Positions 4,017 to 63,682 of a stretch of 64,000 nucleotides of DNA are shown here, piece after piece; position 1 is the first letter of the stretch; each line of letters begins with the position of its first letter. This DNA is from Parcubacteria group bacterium M6-OD1-4. Lineage in GTDB: Bacteria > Patescibacteriota > Patescibacteriia > Patescibacteriales > UBA12465. The translations under genes and the position numbers were made by a program. Location of the stretch: NCBI GenBank assembly GCA_003056205.1, contig LSNS01000019.1:5630-69629 (forward strand), in the 5' to 3' direction. The notes under the pieces were generated by a model, which had not been told where the DNA came from, searched no databases, and saw nothing but the letters and a program-made list of their open reading frames with translations.

Positions 4017-5540
4017 ATGGAATATCTGAATTATGTTTTGTACCTTGTTTTAGCAATTGGTGGTTTTTTTATTGGCTATATTTTCTATAAAAAATCAGCA
4101 GGTTCTAAAATAAACAATGCCTCTGAAAAAGCTAATAGACTCTTGAGCGAAGCCCGTCTGAAAGAAAAAGAGTTGCTGTTGAAAGCTCAAGATAAGGCTT
4201 TAAAAATTATTGAAGAGTCCAAAAAAGAGGAAGCCAGTCGTCGCCTAGAAATAAATAGTTTGCAAAAAAGATTAGAAGAGCGAGAAAATTCTTTCTCACA
4301 AAAACTATTAGATCTTCAAGAAAAACAACAAAAACTTTATGATAAAGTAACGGAAGTTCAAGAAATTAAAGAAAAAATTAAAGAAATTAAAGAAGAACAA
4401 GAAATAAAATTAGAAAAACTATCTAATTTAAGCCGAGAAGATGCTAAAAATCTGATCTTAAAAGATGTTGAGGAAAAAAACAGCGAAGATTTAATGGTGA
4501 GAGTTAATAAGTTAGAAAATAATTCGGAAGATACCATTGATGAAAAAGCTCGTGATTTATTAGCCTTAGCGATGCAACGGATGGTTTCATCCTATACAGT
4601 GGAATTGACAACAACGACAATTGACCTACCTAATGATGAAATGAAAGGAAGAATTATTGGTCGCGAAGGACGAAATATTAAAGCGATTGAAAAAATGACG
4701 GGTGTAGAAATTATTGTCGATGACACTCCTAACGCCATTACCGTTTCAGGATTTTCTTTAATTCGTCGACATATTGCTAAAAAAGTTTTAGATTATTTAA
4801 TAAAAGATGGGCGTATCCACCCCACTAAGATTGAAGAGGCAGTAGAAAATGCTAAAAAAGATATTTCTATTGATATTAAAAAAGCTGGCGAAGAAGCTTT
4901 GTATGAAGTTGGGGTAACTGGTTTTGACCCTAAATTAGTACAGATATTAGGACGTTTAAAATATCGAACAAGTTACGGCCAAAACGCTTTGCGACATTCA
5001 GTAGAAGTCGCTCACTTAGCAGGGATGCTTGCCGAAGAACTCGGAGCCGATGTCACTTTAGCTAAAAAGGGTGGTTTATTACATGATATTGGTAAAGCCG
5101 TTGATCATGAAGTTCAAGGAAATCATACTGAAATTGGTCGTGATATTGCTAAAAAATTTGGTCTGTCGCCAGAACTTATTGCTCCTATTGAAACCCATCA
5201 CGACGATCACCCGATTACTTTAATTTCAGTTATTGTTAAAGTGGCGGATGCTATTTCTTCTGCTCGTCCAGGAGCTCGTAGTGATAACTACGAAAATTAT
5301 GTTCACCGTTTAGAAGAGTTGGAAAGAATTGCCTTGACCTTTGAAGGAATCGAAAAAGTCTATGCTATTCAAGCCGGAAGAGAGGTGCGGGTCTTTGTCC
5401 AATCCGAAGAAATTAATGATTTCCAAACTCATAATCTAGCACGAGATATTGCAAAAAAGATAGAAAATGAGTTAAAATACCCAGGAGAGATTAAAATTAA
5501 TGTTATTCGAGAACTGCGCGTTACAGAGTATGCCCGTTAG
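4017..5540 (+). CDS. rny: ribonuclease Y
   Basis: 507 aa with N-terminal TM helix, long coiled-coil K/E region, KH domain (GRIIGREGRNIKA) and HD domain (LLHDIGKA...HH). Confidence 0.9.
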   Translation: MEYLNYVLYLVLAIGGFFIGYIFYKKSAGSKINNASEKANRLLSEARLKEKELLLKAQDKALKIIEESKKEEASRRLEINSLQKRLEERENSFSQKLLDLQEKQQKLYDKVTEVQEIKEKIKEIKEEQEIKLEKLSNLSREDAKNLILKDVEEKNSEDLMVRVNKLENNSEDTIDEKARDLLALAMQRMVSSYTVELTTTTIDLPNDEMKGRIIGREGRNIKAIEKMTGVEIIVDDTPNAITVSGFSLIRRHIAKKVLDYLIKDGRIHPTKIEEAVENAKKDISIDIKKAGEEALYEVGVTGFDPKLVQILGRLKYRTSYGQNALRHSVEVAHLAGMLAEELGADVTLAKKGGLLHDIGKAVDHEVQGNHTEIGRDIAKKFGLSPELIAPIETHHDDHPITLISVIVKVADAISSARPGARSDNYENYVHRLEELERIALTFEGIEKVYAIQAGREVRVFVQSEEINDFQTHNLARDIAKKIENELKYPGEIKINVIRELRVTEYAR

Positions 5541-12577: not shown

Positions 12578-12694
12578 TTCTGGCGGCGACCTACTTTCCC
12601 AGGGCTCAGGCCCAAGTATCATCGGCGCTGGAGGACTTAACTTCTGAGTTCGGAATGGAATCAGGTGTGACCCCTCCGCTCAAAACCACCAGAA
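12578..12694 (-). rRNA. rrf: 5S rRNA
   Basis: Reverse complement reads TTCTGGTGGTTTTGAGCGGAGGGGTCACACCTGATTCCATTCCGAACTCAGAAGTTAAG...GGGAAAGTAGGTCGCCGCCAGAA. Terminal helix is extended by flanking ACCATTG/CAATGGT. Confidence 0.9.
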
Positions 12695-13104: not shown

Positions 13105-13836
13105 CATATTAATCACTTATTACTAAGTGTATGGACTATACCTTCACCCTGCAGACAACAGGGGGTTGACGTGTTAGCGTTCTAACGAACACTCTATCCT
13201 TATTTTGGATAAGTCTCTAAGGGGTTAAATTATGTTTAATTCGTTTTTTAGAATAATTAAGTGTTCTAAATTTCTCAATTAATTCTGCTAATTCAATAAA
13301 ATTTTGTCTGTCCTTCATCTTTTTCTTGCGATCAAGAATCTGGAGCATTAAATTAGCCTGGGTTTGTTTAAGAATTAAATATTTTTTAATTTGCTGTAAA
13401 AAATCTTTAATATCTGCTTGACGATTTAAGGTATATTCTAAAATACCATCTTTTCTCTCGCGCCAAACACCACCACCAATCAAAGCGATTAATTTTCTAA
13501 ATTTGTCTTCCTCTTTTTTAGCCTGGAAGAAAACAACAAATGGAGCAATCTGGTAATTAAATCTATAATCTGTATTAGGTTTTAATCGGACATAAATACT
13601 TCCATCTCCATCTAAAAACCCTGCTAAATACGCTCTTTGATTTGTGGTTAAACGATTAATCATAATAAACTTCCCTCGGTATTATCCTAACATATAACGA
13701 ATCATTCCGAAATATACTAGGGTTTCACCGATATGAGTCAACTTCTCATTTAACATTACTGCTAAACGCCGCCGTAAATAAATTTGATGTCATCACCGGA
13801 TTCAGAGTGTTTAAAAGCCAAAATTTTAGCTTCTAA
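13105..13836 (-). mobile_element. group I intron in 23S rRNA domain V, carrying a homing-endonuclease ORF
   Basis: Removing 13105..13836 restores the collinear conserved sequence ...GGGTTCAGACCGT|CGTAAGACAGG.... The 5' exon ends in U and the intron ends in G (group I rule). The insert contains a LAGLIDADG ORF in the same orientation. Confidence 0.75.
13217..13663 (-). CDS. LAGLIDADG homing endonuclease (single-motif, I-CreI-like size)
   Basis: 148 aa. Motif LAGFLDGDGSIYV near the N-terminus. Lies wholly inside the 23S insertion. Confidence 0.85.
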   Translation of the reverse strand: MINRLTTNQRAYLAGFLDGDGSIYVRLKPNTDYRFNYQIAPFVVFFQAKKEEDKFRKLIALIGGGVWRERKDGILEYTLNRQADIKDFLQQIKKYLILKQTQANLMLQILDRKKKMKDRQNFIELAELIEKFRTLNYSKKRIKHNLTP

Positions 13837-13840
13837 ACGG

Positions 13841-13893
<53 letters not shown>

Positions 13894-13903
13894 GCTTCTT
13901 CAC

Positions 13904-13936
<33 letters not shown>

Positions 13937-14424
13937 GAACCAGGTCGTCGATATGGACTCTTGGACCTGACTAGCCTGTTATCCCCGGAGTAGCTTTTAT
14001 CCGATGAGCTTCCACCATCCTATATTGAATGGTCGGATCACTAAGTTCCGCTTTCGCGACTGCTTGACTTGTAGGTCTCGCAGTAAAGCCAGCTTGTGCC
14101 TTTACACTATCTCTCGGGTTTCCATTCCGAGATAGCTGACCTTTGTAAACGCCTCCGTTACTTTTTGGGAGGCATCCGCCCCAGACAAACTACCCGCCAG
14201 ACACTGTCCCCCGCTATTGCGAGGTGAGAATTAAAAACAGACAAGGGTGGTATCTCACTGGCGCCCGAAGGCTCCCACCTATTCTGAACATGTGTGACTC
14301 TAATTCAATATCAAGTTGTAGTAAAGCTTCACGGGGTCTTTTCGTCCAACTGTGGTTAACGAGCATCTTTACTCGTATTGCAATTTCGCCGAGTACTTCG
14401 TTGAGACAGTGCCCAAGTGGTTAA

Positions 14425-14477
<53 letters not shown>

Positions 14478-15964
14478 GATTATAGTTATCGCCGGCGTTC
14501 ATCCGCGCTTGAATTCAAAGCTTTGCACCGAAGTGCTAACCTCTCCTCTTAACGTTCGGACACTGGCCAGGCATCACCCTCTATACATCCTCTTACGAGT
14601 TAGCAGAGAGCTATGTTTTTGGTAAACAGTCCCTTGGGCTCTTTAGCTGCGGCCCTCTTGCGAGGGCAGGCCTTATCTCTAAATTACGGCCGCTGTTTTG
14701 CCGAGTTCCTTAACGAAGTTTCTCTCGTACATCTGAGGCTTCTCGCCTCACCTACCTGTGTTGGTTTGCGGTACGATTACTATTGTCTTAGCCCTAGAGG
14801 TTTTTCTAGTCAGCTCATCCACTTAAATTGATTTCACCTTGCGGCTTCGTCTTTTCACAATCCTTGGGAATCATTGGCCCGGATTTACCTAGACCATTCC
14901 TCAAAATTGCAAACGCACATACCATAGCACGCTTAAACTTTAAAGCTGCGTCCCCCCATCGGAAAACAACAGTAGTGACGGAATATTAACCGTCTTATCC
15001 ATCGGCTGGCACCCGCACTACACGGGTTGCGCCTTAGGATCGACTAACCCTGGGTCGATTTTCGTTGCCCAGGAAACCTTAGGTTTTCGATGGGCGGGGT
15101 TTTAACCCGCCTTCTTGCTACTCATGCCAACATTCTCCCTTCTCTCCGCTCCACCACGCCTCACAACGTGACTTCAACGCTGAAGAGAATGCTCCTCTAC
15201 CACTCCCTAAAATAAATTAGGAAGTTCACATCTTCGGTACTATGCTTAAGCCCCGGTAAATTTTCGGCGCGAAACAACTTGATTAGTGAGCTATTACGCT
15301 ATCTTTAAAGGATGGCTGCTTCTAAGCCAACCTCCTAACTGTCGTAGTCACAACACCACCTTTCACACTTAGCATAAATTTAGGGACCTTAGATTGTGAT
15401 CTGGGCTGTTTCCCTTTCGACTGATGGACCTTAGCGCCCATAGTCTGACTGCCGGACTATACCCCCAAGTATTCGGAGTTTGATTGAAGACGGTATCTTA
15501 CGACCCGCCCTCATCCAGTGCTCTACCCCCTGAGGTCAACATCCGACGCTAGCCCTAAAGCTATTTCGAGGAGAACCAGCTATTGCCGAGTTCGATTACA
15601 ATTTCTGCGCTAACCACAAGTCATCCCATAGTGTTGCACGGCTATTGGGTTCGGTCCTCCATTCGTCTTTCGACGAACTTCAACCTGCTCATGGTTAGAT
15701 CACCCGGCTTCGGGTCTTGTCCAGGCGACGTGTACTTCACTTTTAACGCACTAATCAAATACTAATGCGTAAAAGTGAAGCACAATACGGGCTATTAACC
15801 CTCGCTTTCACTATGCATACTCTCCAGAGGAGATTATGCCAGCCACCTAGAACAAACTCGTTGGCTCATTCTTCAATAGGCACGCCGTCACTCCTGTAAA
15901 CAGAAGCTCCGACTCTTTGTAAGTATATGGTTTCAGGTACTATTTCACCTCCCTCAACGGGATG

Positions 15965-16001
<37 letters not shown>

Positions 16002-16703
16002 ATCATAAGAAGTATTTAGTCTTAGGTCATAGTCGACCTGGCTTCAGACGGGGTTTCACGAGTCCCGCCCTACTTAAGAACACTAAAACGAAGAGTTATT
16101 TCTTTTCGCTTACCGGGCTATCACCGTCTCTGGCCAAGCTTTCCAGCTTGTTCAACTAAGAAATATCTTTTTTGACTTCGCCCCGTTGATCTGGCAACAG
16201 GCCTTAGGTCTTGCAACCCCAAAAAAACATATGGTTCCAGAACCTTCTGAAATAAACTTGGCGAACCAAGTTTGTTCCTCAGTTATTTTGGTTTAGACTT
16301 CTCCCCTTTCGCTCGCCACTACTTAGGGAATGATTATTATTCTCTTTTCCTCCAGCTACTAAGATGTTTCAGTTCGCCGGGTCTTCCAGCCCACCTTAAA
16401 GGTTGGGCTTCCTCTATCTTCCATAGAGGGGGTTTCCCCATTCGGAAATCTGCGGGTCAAAGGTTGCTTGCCACCTGACCGCAGCTTATCGCAGGCTGCT
16501 ACGTCCTTCATCGTCTTCTTATGTCAAGGCATCCACCATACACTCTTAACGTGATTTTCCCACGCTTTTATTTTTAAAGCTACAAAAAGCGTGCTTTTTA
16601 ATGTTTCAATACAGCTCCTTAAATCTTGACGAAAAAAAAAGATATTAAGGAATAAAACATTAGATTCTTTACTTATATTTTTGATGTCTTTACTCTAATT
16701 AGA

Positions 16704-24874: not shown

Positions 24875-25873
24875 TTAAATGATATTTTTTTTATTAGAAA
24901 CAAAGGTAACCGCCTGTTTAATGTCAGTAGTACCCAAAATCCATTGAGTTATTCGGGAAATTCCAAAACCACAACCAGCATGAGGGATACTGCCCTTTTC
25001 CAATTGATTAATATACCAAGCAAAATCTTCTAAAGAACCGCCCATTTTTTCTAAACGTTTGAACATTCGCGAATTCAATAATCTTTTTTTCATTTCTTCT
25101 GCTGAATGCACTCTAGCGGCTGAGCCCACAGCCTCGCCCGCTAAAGGAAGAATTAAATCACTGGATAAAACTCGACCAGGATGTTCGGGATCTGGTAACA
25201 TATTAAAAAATTTTTCTATTTCAATTTCCTGATCATGCTTATACATTGGATCGGGATAATGAGTAATAAATAGGGGTTGCTCACCAAAATATTTAACCAA
25301 AATTGTTTCTTGTTTAGAATTAATATCGTCTCCCCAATTTATATCTTCATTTTTACCTTTTAAAATATCAAGGGCCTCGTCATAAGTAACTTTTGGAAAA
25401 ACTGCTGGACAAGTTGCTAATTGCTTTAAACGCTTGGGGCTGATACCTAAATCTTTATTAACTCCAACTAACGCTAACTGGTGAGCAATGTCGCTAATAT
25501 AAATTTCTATCTCTTTGAGTAGATCACTAAAATTACCAGCAAATTCTATTTCCATCATATAAAACTCAATTAAATGCCGATCGTCTACTTCATTTTCTGC
25601 CCGAAAAGAAGGGCCAGCACAATATACTTTTTTTAAATCTGGCACTAGAGCTTCCAAATAAAGTTGACCAGTCTGGGCTAAATAAGCTTGGTGACCAAAC
25701 CATTTAGTGTTTCCATCAACACCAACCTCAAATAAAGTATTGACATTTTCACAAGCACCAGTAGCACGAACAATGCGAGGTACTACCACTTCGGTATAAC
25801 CACGTTTTTCTAAGCTGGCCCGACCCGCCTTTAAAATCTCGGATACGACCAAAGTACATTTGTTGTTTTCCAT
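24875..25873 (-). CDS. AsnRS-like class II aaRS catalytic-core paralogue lacking an anticodon-binding domain (candidate archaeal-type asparagine synthetase A)
   Basis: 332 aa, beginning directly at the catalytic core. Motif 2 GPSFRAENEVDDRHLIEFYMMEIEF, motif 3 HAGCGFGISRITQWILG. No N-terminal OB fold. Confidence 0.6.
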   Translation of the reverse strand: MENNKCTLVVSEILKAGRASLEKRGYTEVVVPRIVRATGACENVNTLFEVGVDGNTKWFGHQAYLAQTGQLYLEALVPDLKKVYCAGPSFRAENEVDDRHLIEFYMMEIEFAGNFSDLLKEIEIYISDIAHQLALVGVNKDLGISPKRLKQLATCPAVFPKVTYDEALDILKGKNEDINWGDDINSKQETILVKYFGEQPLFITHYPDPMYKHDQEIEIEKFFNMLPDPEHPGRVLSSDLILPLAGEAVGSAARVHSAEEMKKRLLNSRMFKRLEKMGGSLEDFAWYINQLEKGSIPHAGCGFGISRITQWILGTTDIKQAVTFVSNKKNII

Positions 25874-27089: not shown

Positions 27090-27230
27090 TTAATTCGGCC
27101 AAGTTTTAAAATATGGATGGAATAAACGGTAACCATCCTTTTTATTTAATTCCGCTTGAATAAATTCTTGTTGAATTTCAATTTCGAGAGCATTAAGTGC
27201 AGTGCGTCCTTGACGAGCTTTTTTGTTAAA
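27090..27230 (-). other. 46-codon in-frame continuation after the TGA at 27231-27233
   Basis: Same frame as 27231..27887 reads FNKKARQGRTALNALEIEIQQEFIQAELNKKDGYRLFHPYFKTWPN, then TAA (27090-27092). Composition is coding-like. Confidence 0.4.
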
Positions 27231-27887
27231 TCACCAGACCCCCAAATTTCTTTTGTAGATAGGAACTTTAAAGATTTTAGCATACGTTGGTATTTTATAT
27301 ACTAACATGCCCAGCTCTTTATTTTCAATCAACAACCACTGGCCAAAGAATAGTCTCGGAAATATCTGAACAATAAATAGACTACAGAGAAGCTTCTGAC
27401 GATAATTATATTTTTCCAGAATGTATTTAGAAAAAGATAAATAATGTCGCCGTTCTTTTCCCCGAGCTTTAGTCCAATGCCATTGCTGTTCAATATTTTT
27501 ATCAAGAAGACGAAGTCCAGAAATAAAGAGTTCATTCTTCTGAAGTTTAGGAAATTGCTTCTTAATATTTCCAAGCACCAAAACATCCCACTGAATAACG
27601 ACAACACTATCCCATCCTGATAATTGACGACCTTGATTCTGATACCAATCCAAGATAAGCAGATCACCATTTATCCACTTCCAAGAACGTGCTTGTCCAG
27701 AAAGCGAACTAAGATAAAATTTATCTAAATATTTATTTAGTTTAGTTCGATATAATTTGGCTTGCTTCTGGTCGCCACCATAAAGACCAAATATTTTAAT
27801 ATGGGGATTATGTTTCTTAATCAATTTCAAGTGATTTAAACAAACCTCTGGTTCTTTATAAAACCAAAATAAAACAGCTAATTTCAT
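27231..27887 (-). CDS. hypothetical protein; the only CDS in the window ending in TGA (frame continues, see 27090..27230)
   Basis: The ORF-track start at 27938 is TTG. ATG at 27887 (MKLAVLFWFYKEPE) lies 6 nt after TGTTATAAT. No domain recognised. Confidence 0.5.
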   Translation of the reverse strand: MKLAVLFWFYKEPEVCLNHLKLIKKHNPHIKIFGLYGGDQKQAKLYRTKLNKYLDKFYLSSLSGQARSWKWINGDLLILDWYQNQGRQLSGWDSVVVIQWDVLVLGNIKKQFPKLQKNELFISGLRLLDKNIEQQWHWTKARGKERRHYLSFSKYILEKYNYRQKLLCSLFIVQIFPRLFFGQWLLIENKELGMLVYKIPTYAKIFKVPIYKRNLGVW

Positions 27888-28153: not shown

Positions 28154-28726
28154 TTAAAATAGAGTTGAATTAATTAACTTATCTAATTTTTTGTTATTAA
28201 ACTTTTTTAAATATCTTTTTACTTTTTCTTTGTCCAACAAACCTAGATTCATCTCTTTTGGGTCAAAATGTCCATATCCATTTAGAGATAGGTATGCTAA
28301 ATCTAAAAAGGCTTTTTCTGGTTCCGCTATCAAATAATCATCTTTTCTTATATATCCCCAAAAAAGATCACTTTTAATATGTCTATAAACAATGGGGTAA
28401 TTATGAATGTTAATATCTTTTTTTCTTTTATTCGTTGCTAAAGTAAGGCTAACTGTTTGCTGACTAAGAATATTGTAATAATTAAGAACTGATTCAAAAG
28501 ACACATAACTAGGACTATAAATATTAACAGCTAAATTCTCCCAAGAAATATTATTAATATTCTTAGTATATAAACCATTAACAAGCTTAATAATTTCTCC
28601 AGTTTTTACAGCTCGACTTATGGCGACCTTAAGACTAGCCTTCTCTAAACTACTAATTTTAGACAAATCTTTTAGGGAAAAATATGTTTTAGGAATATTA
28701 TTTATTTCTTTCAATAACTTGCTCAT
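28154..28726 (-). CDS. AbiEi-like antitoxin/transcriptional regulator (type IV TA, wHTH N-terminus)
   Basis: 190 aa. FSLKDLSKIS...AISRAVKTGEIIKLVNGLY (AbiEi_4-like wHTH), then SYVSFESVLNYYNI and AEPEKAFLDLAY motifs. Confidence 0.65.
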   Translation of the reverse strand: MSKLLKEINNIPKTYFSLKDLSKISSLEKASLKVAISRAVKTGEIIKLVNGLYTKNINNISWENLAVNIYSPSYVSFESVLNYYNILSQQTVSLTLATNKRKKDINIHNYPIVYRHIKSDLFWGYIRKDDYLIAEPEKAFLDLAYLSLNGYGHFDPKEMNLGLLDKEKVKRYLKKFNNKKLDKLINSTLF

Positions 28727-29390
28727 ATAATTGTTTAATTATTGGATAATACTTGGGTGGAAGAAAAACTTGCAATTCATTCTTGAAGGCTCTTTCTTTA
28801 AAATTTGGAGTTGCTAAGGGTAAACTAAAATTAACACGAAGAGATTGTGATATATACCAAAGATCAAAAATATCTCTAGCTTTTTTTCTTTGAGCAATAG
28901 CATCTTCTTTTAATGTTTTCAAATTTTCAAGGGTTGGAACTAAGAGCAAGGGGCTTAAAATACTAACCGGACTTTTAATTAAATTTAAATTAATATTTAA
29001 ATTAACTTTTTTAGCTGGTTTATGTATCTCTATCTTCAAAGAAAAAGGGTGCTTCAACTTTTCATCATTTATTTTTAATAAAGCAAAAATTGTCTGTCTT
29101 TTGTCTTTTATATCACTTAATTTCCAACCTTGTTGTTCGCTTAAATCCTCAATAAATTCCTTAAATTCAGTAAAACTAACTCTTTTTATTTCAATTAGGT
29201 CTATATCTTCTGAAAATCTAGGAGAATCATAGACTAAGCGAAGCGCCGTTCCTCCATAGAAGACAACTTTAGAACTCAAATCATTTTGAGCTAATTCATT
29301 TAAAAAAATCATTTCAATTTCTTCACGAATAATTTTATCAATGGAAATTTTTAAATCTCTCTTATATTGTTCTAATTGTTCTAAATTCAT
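28698..29390 (-). CDS. AbiEii/DUF1814-like nucleotidyltransferase toxin
   Basis: 230 aa. VFYGGTALRLVYDSPRFSEDIDL is the NTase signature of the AbiEii family. Overlaps the downstream AbiEi-like gene by 29 nt. Confidence 0.65.
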   Translation of the reverse strand: MNLEQLEQYKRDLKISIDKIIREEIEMIFLNELAQNDLSSKVVFYGGTALRLVYDSPRFSEDIDLIEIKRVSFTEFKEFIEDLSEQQGWKLSDIKDKRQTIFALLKINDEKLKHPFSLKIEIHKPAKKVNLNINLNLIKSPVSILSPLLLVPTLENLKTLKEDAIAQRKKARDIFDLWYISQSLRVNFSLPLATPNFKERAFKNELQVFLPPKYYPIIKQLYEQVIERNK

Positions 29391-29483: not shown

Positions 29484-29497
29484 CTTTTCCTGTTATG

Positions 29498-29569
29498 AGC
29501 GGGTAACGGGAATCGAACCCGTCTCTCGACCTTGGCAAGGTCGCATAATAGCCACTATACGATACCCGC
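29498..29569 (-). tRNA. tRNA-Gly (anticodon GCC)
   Basis: Reverse complement GCGGGTATCGTATAGTGGCTATTATGCGACCTTGCCAAGGTCGAGAGACGGGTTCGATTCCCGTTACCCGCT, loop TTGCCAA. Confidence 0.85.
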
Positions 29570-29586
29570 GATTATTCTACTTTAAG

Positions 29587-29670
29587 TGCCGCGGGCGGGA
29601 ATCGAACCCGCACTGTATTACTACAACTGGATTTTAAGTCCAGCGCGTCTACCAGTTCCGCCACCGCGGC
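29587..29670 (-). tRNA. tRNA-Leu (anticodon TAA), long variable arm
   Basis: Reverse complement GCCGCGGTGGCGGAACTGGTAGACGCGCTGGACTTAAAATCCAG...GCGGGTTCGATTCCCGCCCGCGGCA, loop CTTAAAA. Confidence 0.85.
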
Positions 29671-29699
29671 TAATTTTATTATCAATAATTCAAACTTAG

Positions 29700-30080
29700 T
29701 GGAGATGATGGGACTTGAACCCATGTCCAACTGGTTTATCTAAATACATTTACAAAAATAGTTCAATTTAGGGTTTTAACTTTAATCATCAAAACTGAAC
29801 GAAAAGCAATTAAAGCGATCTCTCTATTATTTCCATGTTTTTCGGAAAGAACAAAAAACATTTATCTTCATCTTTATGACACCAGTAAAACGCTTATGAA
29901 GACTTGGCGTTGCTGATGGTTAAGGCTTTATGTATTAAGCCATAACTGGAGCATAGCTCGGAGTTAACCAAGTGAATGCTCGTGCCGTTTTGGCAGTTGT
30001 ATTTTTTAATCAGTTTAGCGTGATAATTAGCACGTTTTGAATATTTAGCTAAAATCCGGCTGTCGATACCTGACATCCCC
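29700..30080 (-). ncRNA. ssrA: tmRNA (SsrA)
   Basis: Minus-strand 5' GGGGATGTCAGGTATCGACAGCCGG and 3' ATGGGTTCAAGTCCCATCATCTCCA (tRNA-Ala-like T-arm and acceptor), directly downstream of smpB. About 381 nt, no encoded CCA. Confidence 0.85.
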
Positions 30081-63605: not shown

Positions 63606-63682
63606 TGGTGGGCATAGATGGACTTGAACCATCGACCTCCGCTTTATAAGAGCGGCGCTCTAACCAGCTGAGCTATATGCCC
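63606..63682 (-). tRNA. tRNA-Ile (anticodon TAT), CCA encoded
   Basis: Reverse complement GGGCATATAGCTCAGCTGGTTAGAGCGCCGCTCTTATAAAGCGGAGGTCGATGGTTCAAGTCCATCTATGCCCACCA. Anticodon stem CCGCT/AGCGG, loop CTTATAA. The body closely resembles bacterial tRNA-Ile. Confidence 0.8.

Follow-up and report, generated by a model that had tools for sequence, protein, structure and literature searches.

The stretch of DNA analysed here (the window) comprises 64,000 nucleotides of contig LSNS01000019.1 from Parcubacteria group bacterium M6-OD1-4 (assembly GCA_003056205.1, positions 5,630 to 69,629 of the forward strand). It has about 33% GC and harbours 23S and 5S rRNA genes, a tmRNA gene, nine tRNA genes and housekeeping genes typical of Patescibacteria. 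The nearest relatives (about 80% identity in NusA) share synteny over a block that starts with the gene for SHMT, continues with those for FolD, RecQ, NusA, the H+-PPase and trigger factor and ends at smpB. Past smpB, the tmRNA and the tRNAs the gene content varies between species, and the relatives L099-L101 hold other genes at this place. The border between the syntenic block and the variable island is formed by the genes for tRNA-Gly, tRNA-Leu and tmRNA (29497..30080, minus strand). In the window the variable stretch contains a gene pair for an AbiEi-like antitoxin and an AbiEii toxin (28154..29390, minus strand; recognised by Pfam AbiEii and by NCBIfam AbiEi with an E-value of 5e-10), the truncated gene on which this analysis is focused and two hypothetical ORFs. 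The toxin–antitoxin pair lies immediately upstream of the truncated gene. The latter is missing from the syntenic relatives, and its family sits in unrelated neighbourhoods in other genomes. It is an accessory gene in a variable island and belongs to the kind of genes that commonly decay.

The coding sequence of this gene (27231..27887, minus strand) consists of 218 codons and a TGA, and its product, which is identical to database protein P0121, corresponds to the N-terminal 82% of a conserved family of about 263 amino acids with a predicted GT-A-like fold. The TGA (27231-27233) is followed by U as fourth base and is the sole TGA stop of the window. After it the same frame stays open for 46 sense codons up to a TAA at 27090-27092. 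By alignments and by the model of a homologue, the segment 27090..27230 represents the former C-terminal 46 codons together with the original TAA, with the frame intact. Off-frame, about 10% of the codons in this genome are stops, and a 46-codon open frame has a probability of only about 0.008 to arise by chance. The extension is thus no chance product, and in alignments it matches the C-terminal part of its full-length relatives as a homologous segment.

With the read-through product as query 167 homologues were found, nearly all of them 255-270 amino acids long and matching 99-100% of the query. They do not end at the position of the TGA, an outcome that the preliminary description of this DNA had named as one that would refute its observation, and instead run through it. 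In the alignments the corresponding column (residue 219) is occupied by a nearly invariant Trp in the context LGVW-W-FNKK. Among 76 species-level loci, which belong to Patescibacteria, cyanobacteria and proteobacteria, 69 have TGG as the codon opposite the TGA. Hence a single G-to-A transition separates the TGA from the ancestral Trp codon. Among the residues past the TGA, A233, G252, R254, F256, H257 and P258 are invariant in the family. All invariant residues are kept in the 46 codons of the window, where neither a stop nor an indel is found. The ratio of C-terminal to N-terminal identity amounts to 0.92 for the segment past the TGA and falls within the range of 0.82-0.99 observed for intact homologues.

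No Pfam or NCBIfam family matches the target protein. The structure was modelled on the full-length homologue P0003 (69% identical) and not on the protein of the window. The resulting AF2 model has a pLDDT of 95.4 and a pTM of 0.92, and the segment that matches the part past the TGA is folded in it (pLDDT of the blocks 76-96). A Foldseek search of this model against the PDB returned the catalytic domain of UGGT, glycogenin, C2GnT-L and B3GalT5 with E-values from 1e-7 to 1e-5, and these GT-A matches reached a probability of 1.0 and TM-scores of 0.40-0.60. By this model the predicted fold of the family is GT-A glycosyltransferase-like. The likeness to known GT-A glycosyltransferases (GT8 glycogenin, UGGT catalytic domain; GT14 C2GnT) lies in the modelled fold of P0003, whereas the sequence identity is as low as 9-12%. 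The family also has the invariant residues Q99-W100-D101 and G74-D75, which are candidates for a DxD-type motif that would bind metal and nucleotide sugar.

A premature stop occurs in a second, unrelated lineage of this family too. In locus L008, found in several samples, a TAG occupies a Gln column that precedes the TGA column by nine codons, and the frame downstream of this TAG is intact. This means that the family acquires plain nonsense mutations with stops other than TGA. The TAG-truncated copies (P0120, P0123) are all identical and therefore have no power to gauge selection past the TAG. Re-initiation of translation to give a separate C-terminal piece of the window gene was also considered and rejected, since there is no in-frame ATG, GTG or TTG directly past the TGA.

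The truncated gene is present in all sampled strains. Contig LSNU01000016.1 of the NCBI MAG GCA_003056195.1 is 99.95% identical to the window, and six further near-identical Logan contigs come from six runs of three accession series (SRR6439370-72, SRR14803397-98 and SRR32234002). The species was found in two NCBI metagenome assemblies as well. The same truncated product of 218 amino acids, and hence the TGA, occurs in eight of eight assemblies, i.e., in the window and in seven other contigs from NCBI and Logan. Over about 20 kb these eight assemblies show 13 variable sites (approximately 0.05%), none of them in the 138-bp extension. With a strain divergence this low, both the fixation of the TGA and the missing decay downstream of it say little about selection. 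One of the differences is a private SNP of the window strain at 27301 (minus strand), with GTA versus GAA in the six assemblies that can be compared base by base. The resulting replacement E196V affects a position at which 45 homologues without exception have Glu, which hints at relaxed constraint, albeit as a single event.

The stop codons of the whole window were counted mechanically in non-overlapping ORFs of at least 80 amino acids (n=55), giving 45 TAA, 9 TAG and 1 TGA. TAA is likewise the stop of two small genes, those for L32 and L34. In substance this agrees with the tally of 49, 9 and 1 in the preliminary description, whose coordinates for the 46-codon open frame and its final TAA were also recovered here. 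If TGA is counted as a sense codon throughout the window, the target gene alone is lengthened, and all remaining ORFs with TGA are antisense or off-frame artefacts. Outside the window the same contig contains 17 further genes without a TGA stop. For the species, as represented by 84 kb, TGA terminates 1 of 72 genes, or 0 of 71 if the target gene is left aside. Off-frame, TGA is even more frequent than TAG in the window (984 versus 787), and base composition alone therefore fails to explain the missing TGA stops.

This scarcity has to be seen in the context of the clade, the loci of which were collected via NusA. After removal of duplicates the stops were binned by GC content. Below a GC content of 0.345 TGA accounts for 4 of 97 stops (4.1%), between 0.345 and 0.375 for 10 of 221 (4.5%), between 0.375 and 0.405 for 18 of 302 (6.0%), between 0.405 and 0.455 for 14 of 117 (12%) and above 0.455 for 11 of 73 (15%). 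In each of these bins TAG is more abundant than TGA. Taken together, syntenic relatives with a GC content of at most 0.375 use TGA in 14 of 318 stops, i.e., 4.4%. For a genome with 33% GC this means that 0-3 TGA stops are expected in about 70 genes. At a rate of 4.4% the probability of finding at most one TGA in 72 stops is about 0.17 and that of finding none in 71 about 0.04. The three nearest syntenic relatives have 42 TAA, 11 TAG and no TGA (0 of 53). A broader sample of less related Patescibacteria has TGA in 32 of 275 stops (11.6%), and against this background the depletion is significant (beta-binomial P of about 0.006). The baseline of 10-15% that had been assumed beforehand fits this broader sample and is too high for the clade itself. 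Accordingly, the rarity of TGA that was noticed at the outset is real, but it is weaker than the probability of 1e-2 to 1e-3 then attached to it. Low use of TGA as a stop is a graded, GC-linked trait of the clade, and the species lies at most mildly below expectation.

Bacterial stop usage is known to co-vary with the abundance of RF1 and RF2, the share of TGA being higher at higher GC (PMC4989110). The climb of the TGA share from about 4% to 15% with GC in this clade resembles that pattern. Members of the clade with low GC nevertheless do use TGA to end housekeeping genes. In these relatives TGA is the stop of rluD (L146 with a GC content of 0.33, and L116), smpB (L124), recQ (L153) and nusA (L161), and the C-termini of the TGA-ended rluD, smpB and recQ products align with those of the window orthologues. 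Within the target family the homologue P0005 (locus L010) also has a TGA stop at its normal C-terminus. From these TGA-ended housekeeping orthologues and P0005 we conclude that UGA is a working stop in the clade. We infer that RF2 is present in the species as well.

A changed genetic code should be visible in other genes too. Apart from the TGA of the target gene the window contains 155 Trp codons, all of them TGG, and no other in-frame TGA, so that TGA makes up 1 in 156 at most. Since about 80% of the codons in two-fold pairs ending with A or G end with A in the window, UGA should be frequent here if it were established as a Trp codon. Alignments of 18 syntenic proteins from about 70 distinct clade loci (734 alignments) have 1,300 TGG and no TGA among approximately 1,600 codons opposite the Trp residues of the window, and no in-frame TGA was detected in these 734 alignments at all. 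The motif GGQ[HN][VI]N of class-I release factors (prfA/prfB) was found neither in the window nor in the 20 kb of sequence flanking it nor in the loci searched, a result that speaks for 84 kb of the genome. Neither the window nor these 20 kb contain a gene for tRNA-Trp (ARAGORN detected nine tRNAs and the tmRNA in the window and none in addition in the flanks).

Code 4 is marked by numerous UGA-Trp codons, by the loss of prfB and by a tRNA-Trp(UCA), and the reassignment of UGA to Trp is known only from Bacillota, Pseudomonadota, Verrucomicrobiota and Actinomycetota (PMC13462651). With the code-4 lineages (Mycoplasmatales, Hodgkinia, Zinderia, Nasuia and the Eggerthellaceae lineages of PMC13462651) the present case shares a low GC content, an in-frame UGA where homologues have a conserved Trp and, the target gene aside, the lack of TGA stops in the available sequence of the species. 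In contrast with them, whose housekeeping genes are rich in UGA-Trp codons, there is one such codon in 156 here and none in the clade. The marker of many in-frame UGA codons at Trp positions of housekeeping genes is absent, and members of the clade end genes in genuine TGA stops. Code 25, in which UGA encodes Gly in Absconditabacteria and Gracilibacteria, concerns the same codon in the same phylum at low GC as well, but here the aligned residue is Trp and not Gly and the ORFs are unfragmented under code 11. No support for a recoding of UGA was found. The first two scenarios of the preliminary description, in which UGA is nearly unassigned or occasionally serves as a sense codon, are unsupported in view of the TGA-ended rluD, smpB and recQ of relatives with equal GC and of the complete lack of TGA among the 155 Trp codons of the window and the roughly 1,600 of the clade.

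We regard a recent and fixed TGG-to-TGA nonsense mutation in an accessory-island gene of a low-GC genome, from a clade in which TGA stops are rare, as the best explanation, with a probability of about 80%; the gene would then be truncated or have become a young pseudogene. The ancestral gene (27090-27887, minus strand) would have encoded a glycosyltransferase-like protein of about 265 amino acids with GT-A fold. In the ancestor that the sampled strains all share, a G-to-A transition presumably changed TGG at Trp-219 to TGA and thereby removed the last 46 residues, including G-x-R-I/L-F-H-P-Y as most conserved motif of the C-terminus. UGA would have remained a stop and the gene would now be a young pseudogene with a truncated and probably inactive product. 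The undecayed frame downstream would reflect a mutation that is recent relative to the divergence of this gene from its relatives, and the rarity of TGA stops is a separate, GC-linked matter of the clade.

Several properties that characterise pseudogenes are found here. The stop is premature if compared to the full-length homologues and differs by a single base from the ancestral sense codon, and the truncation removes residues that are conserved and, according to alignment and AF2 model, structurally integrated. The conserved motif and the folded state of the lost segment suggest that the product of 218 amino acids has probably lost its function. As to relaxed selection since the stop arose, there is the one replacement E196V and no decay downstream (ratio 0.92), but strains that are 99.95% alike offer no statistical power. 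A random nonsense hit in this gene would also often be expected to place a TGA at a Trp position. There are 12 Trp codons in the gene, and TGG-to-TGA changes represent 12 of 158 single-base paths to a stop. With illustrative weights (transitions x3, GC-to-AT changes x2) they amount to about 18% of all nonsense events, and to about 64% if only the events creating a TGA are considered. The gene resembles an ordinary nonsense pseudogene in the stop that is one transition away, the full-length homologues, the motif downstream of the stop, the location in a variable island and the extra missense change at an invariant residue in one strain. It differs in the undecayed downstream frame and in the fixation of the allele in all samples, two features that the very low diversity within the species (approximately 0.05%) accounts for. 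Of the third scenario of the preliminary description, a recent nonsense mutation combined with a coincidentally low TGA count, the first part fits, as homologues span the TGA and have TGG aligned with it. The second part has to be replaced, because the low count is a GC-correlated trait of the clade and no coincidence.

Some observations count against the nonsense reading. The lack of TGA stops in 71 genes of the species lies at the lower margin of what the clade rate predicts (P of about 0.04), and it extends to the 53 stops of the three nearest relatives. The undecayed 46 codons and the fixed TGA, taken alone, would equally be expected if UGA were read through.

Such read-through is conceivable with an unchanged code. 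UGA is the leakiest stop codon and tRNA-Trp is its natural suppressor. Bacillus subtilis reportedly decodes UGA as Trp with an efficiency of a few percent. In the present gene UGA could still be a stop that some near-cognate reading by tRNA-Trp(CCA) occasionally overcomes, leaving the gene partly functional and its C-terminus under selection. The amino acid restored in this way would be precisely the conserved Trp, and the downstream segment is undecayed in an allele that is fixed in eight assemblies. However, at about 0.05% strain divergence this fixation and the missing decay are nearly uninformative on selection, and the private E196V, which replaces an invariant residue, suggests relaxed constraint. 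The fourth base after the TGA is U, which is said to provide a strong termination context in E. coli. A stimulatory RNA structure is absent past the TGA as well, since the fold of UGA and about 65 nucleotides behind it gave z = +0.59 versus shuffled sequences. We thus consider a leaky stop of this kind unlikely.

A more far-reaching alternative is an early stage of codon capture, in which low GC purged the TGA stops, RF2 was lost or disabled in this species, or in a small subclade of low GC around it, and UGA became unassigned or encodes Trp, the replacement of TGG by TGA at Trp-219 being the first of its kind. Codon-capture and unassigned-codon models predict a stage of this kind (PMC13462651). 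In line with it the species has no genuine TGA stop among 71 genes in 84 kb and its three nearest relatives have none among 53, orthologous stops in these genomes swap between TAA and TAG but never to TGA, and the plentiful off-frame TGA (984 versus 787 TAG) excludes composition alone as reason. The sole in-frame TGA moreover coincides exactly with a conserved Trp. If this were true, the very first step of codon capture or codon unassignment on the way to code 4 could be watched in a living species, in a phylum with only UGA-to-Gly known. Nevertheless, no more than one of 156 Trp codons is TGA although A is preferred in about 80% of the pairs ending with A or G, and TGA-for-Trp codons occur nowhere in the clade alignments. 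Clade members with equally low GC have TGA as natural stop of orthologous housekeeping genes, and a count of 0-1 TGA for about 72 genes can be reconciled with the clade rate of about 4% (P from 0.04 to 0.17). The independent TAG mutation in the same family also shows that nonsense mutations arise there without any involvement of UGA. As Patescibacteria are outside the four phyla with known UGA-to-Trp reassignment (PMC13462651), the prior for such an event is low, and altogether we judge it very improbable.

The insertion of selenocysteine, or of glycine as in code 25, has nothing in its favour besides the in-frame UGA itself and practically no probability. Homologues carry Trp at this position and not Cys/Sec or Gly, and a SECIS-like hairpin is absent (z = +0.59, see above), by which selenocysteine is excluded. 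Code 25 is rejected because of the aligned Trp and the intact ORFs, the coverage of which is about 0.83 in the window versus 0.15-0.23 in the code-25 loci L074, L076 and L077. Equally negligible is a sequencing or assembly error with G as the true base and an intact gene: indel errors are present in GCA_003056195.1, where ftsH and pheS are split although other assemblies have them intact, but the TGA is due to a substitution and is shared by the window, this MAG and the six Logan contigs, which were assembled independently, so that an error is rejected by eight concordant assemblies.

With the nonsense mutation as preferred reading the finding mainly concerns annotation. Translation table 11 should be kept for the genome, and we recommend annotating the target gene as a pseudogene or as a truncated member of a GT-A-like family that is still uncharacterised. 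Of modest general value is the stop usage of the clade. In most bacteria TGA outnumbers TAG, which is the opposite of the situation described here. Clade members with low GC, in which about 4% of the stops are TGA and TAG prevails over it, sit near the "UGA-free" state that codon-capture models need.

Among the NusA-syntenic Patescibacteria clade (loci L099-L181) the share of TGA among stop codons rises with GC content, from about 4% at GC ≤0.375 to about 15% at GC >0.455, and in every GC class TAG is used more often than TGA. The low-GC members of this clade thus come close to being free of TGA stops.

An independent second premature stop was encountered in the GT-A-like family of the minus-strand gene at 27090-27887, namely in L008 (JGI Ga0257125_1000012, positions 4226-4228), a locus from another lineage that carries this family. 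Here the premature stop is TAG and occupies a conserved glutamine column, nine codons upstream of the conserved tryptophan column at which the gene of the window has its TGA; the 48 codons that follow the TAG are intact. The TAG-bearing copies in L095-L098 are identical to that of L008, without any variation among the copies from several metagenomes.

Directly upstream of the target gene lies a toxin–antitoxin pair (28154-29390, minus strand) whose two genes overlap; the toxin is AbiEii and the antitoxin is AbiEi-like. This pair belongs to a variable island that is located downstream of smpB, tmRNA, tRNA-Leu and tRNA-Gly and is missing from the syntenic relatives.

Regarding the quality of the compared assemblies, both ftsH and pheS are represented by two ORFs each in the public MAG of the same species, GCA_003056195.1 (contig LSNU01000016.1; L001 16334-18159 and L088 4307-5335). 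Both genes are unbroken in the window or in GCA_006243105.1, and their splitting probably reflects indel errors of the GCA_003056195.1 assembly. Additionally, several GTDB records of plainly Patescibacteria-like character are titled, e.g., “uncultured Gammaproteobacteria” or “Bdellovibrionales” (L009, L011, L019, L021, L023, L038 and others). These loci are of low GC and possess the target's gene family at 48–69% identity; the taxonomy labels of such binned assemblies look unreliable.

Near the rRNA genes a minus-strand ORF of 148 amino acids (13217-13663) matches LAGLIDADG homing endonucleases (Pfam E-value 1.3e-9). It lies within the 1.1 kb that separate the 23S rRNA (13772-16559) from the 5S rRNA (12578-12693). 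In Rfam the complete 23S model aligns without this ORF, whose setting may be either an intron or the 23S–5S spacer.

A further minus-strand gene (24875-25873) encodes a protein of 332 amino acids with profile matches to asparaginyl/aspartyl-tRNA synthetase and to AsnA-type asparagine synthetase. The synthetase match is restricted to the catalytic core (profile positions ~135–450) and the anticodon-binding domain is absent; this protein may be an AsnA-like paralogue and not a tRNA synthetase.

Finally, ARAGORN detected a tRNA-Ile with the anticodon UAU on the minus strand (63606-63682). Since AUA is decoded in most bacteria by a CAU tRNA with lysidine modification, this represents an unusual decoding arrangement.
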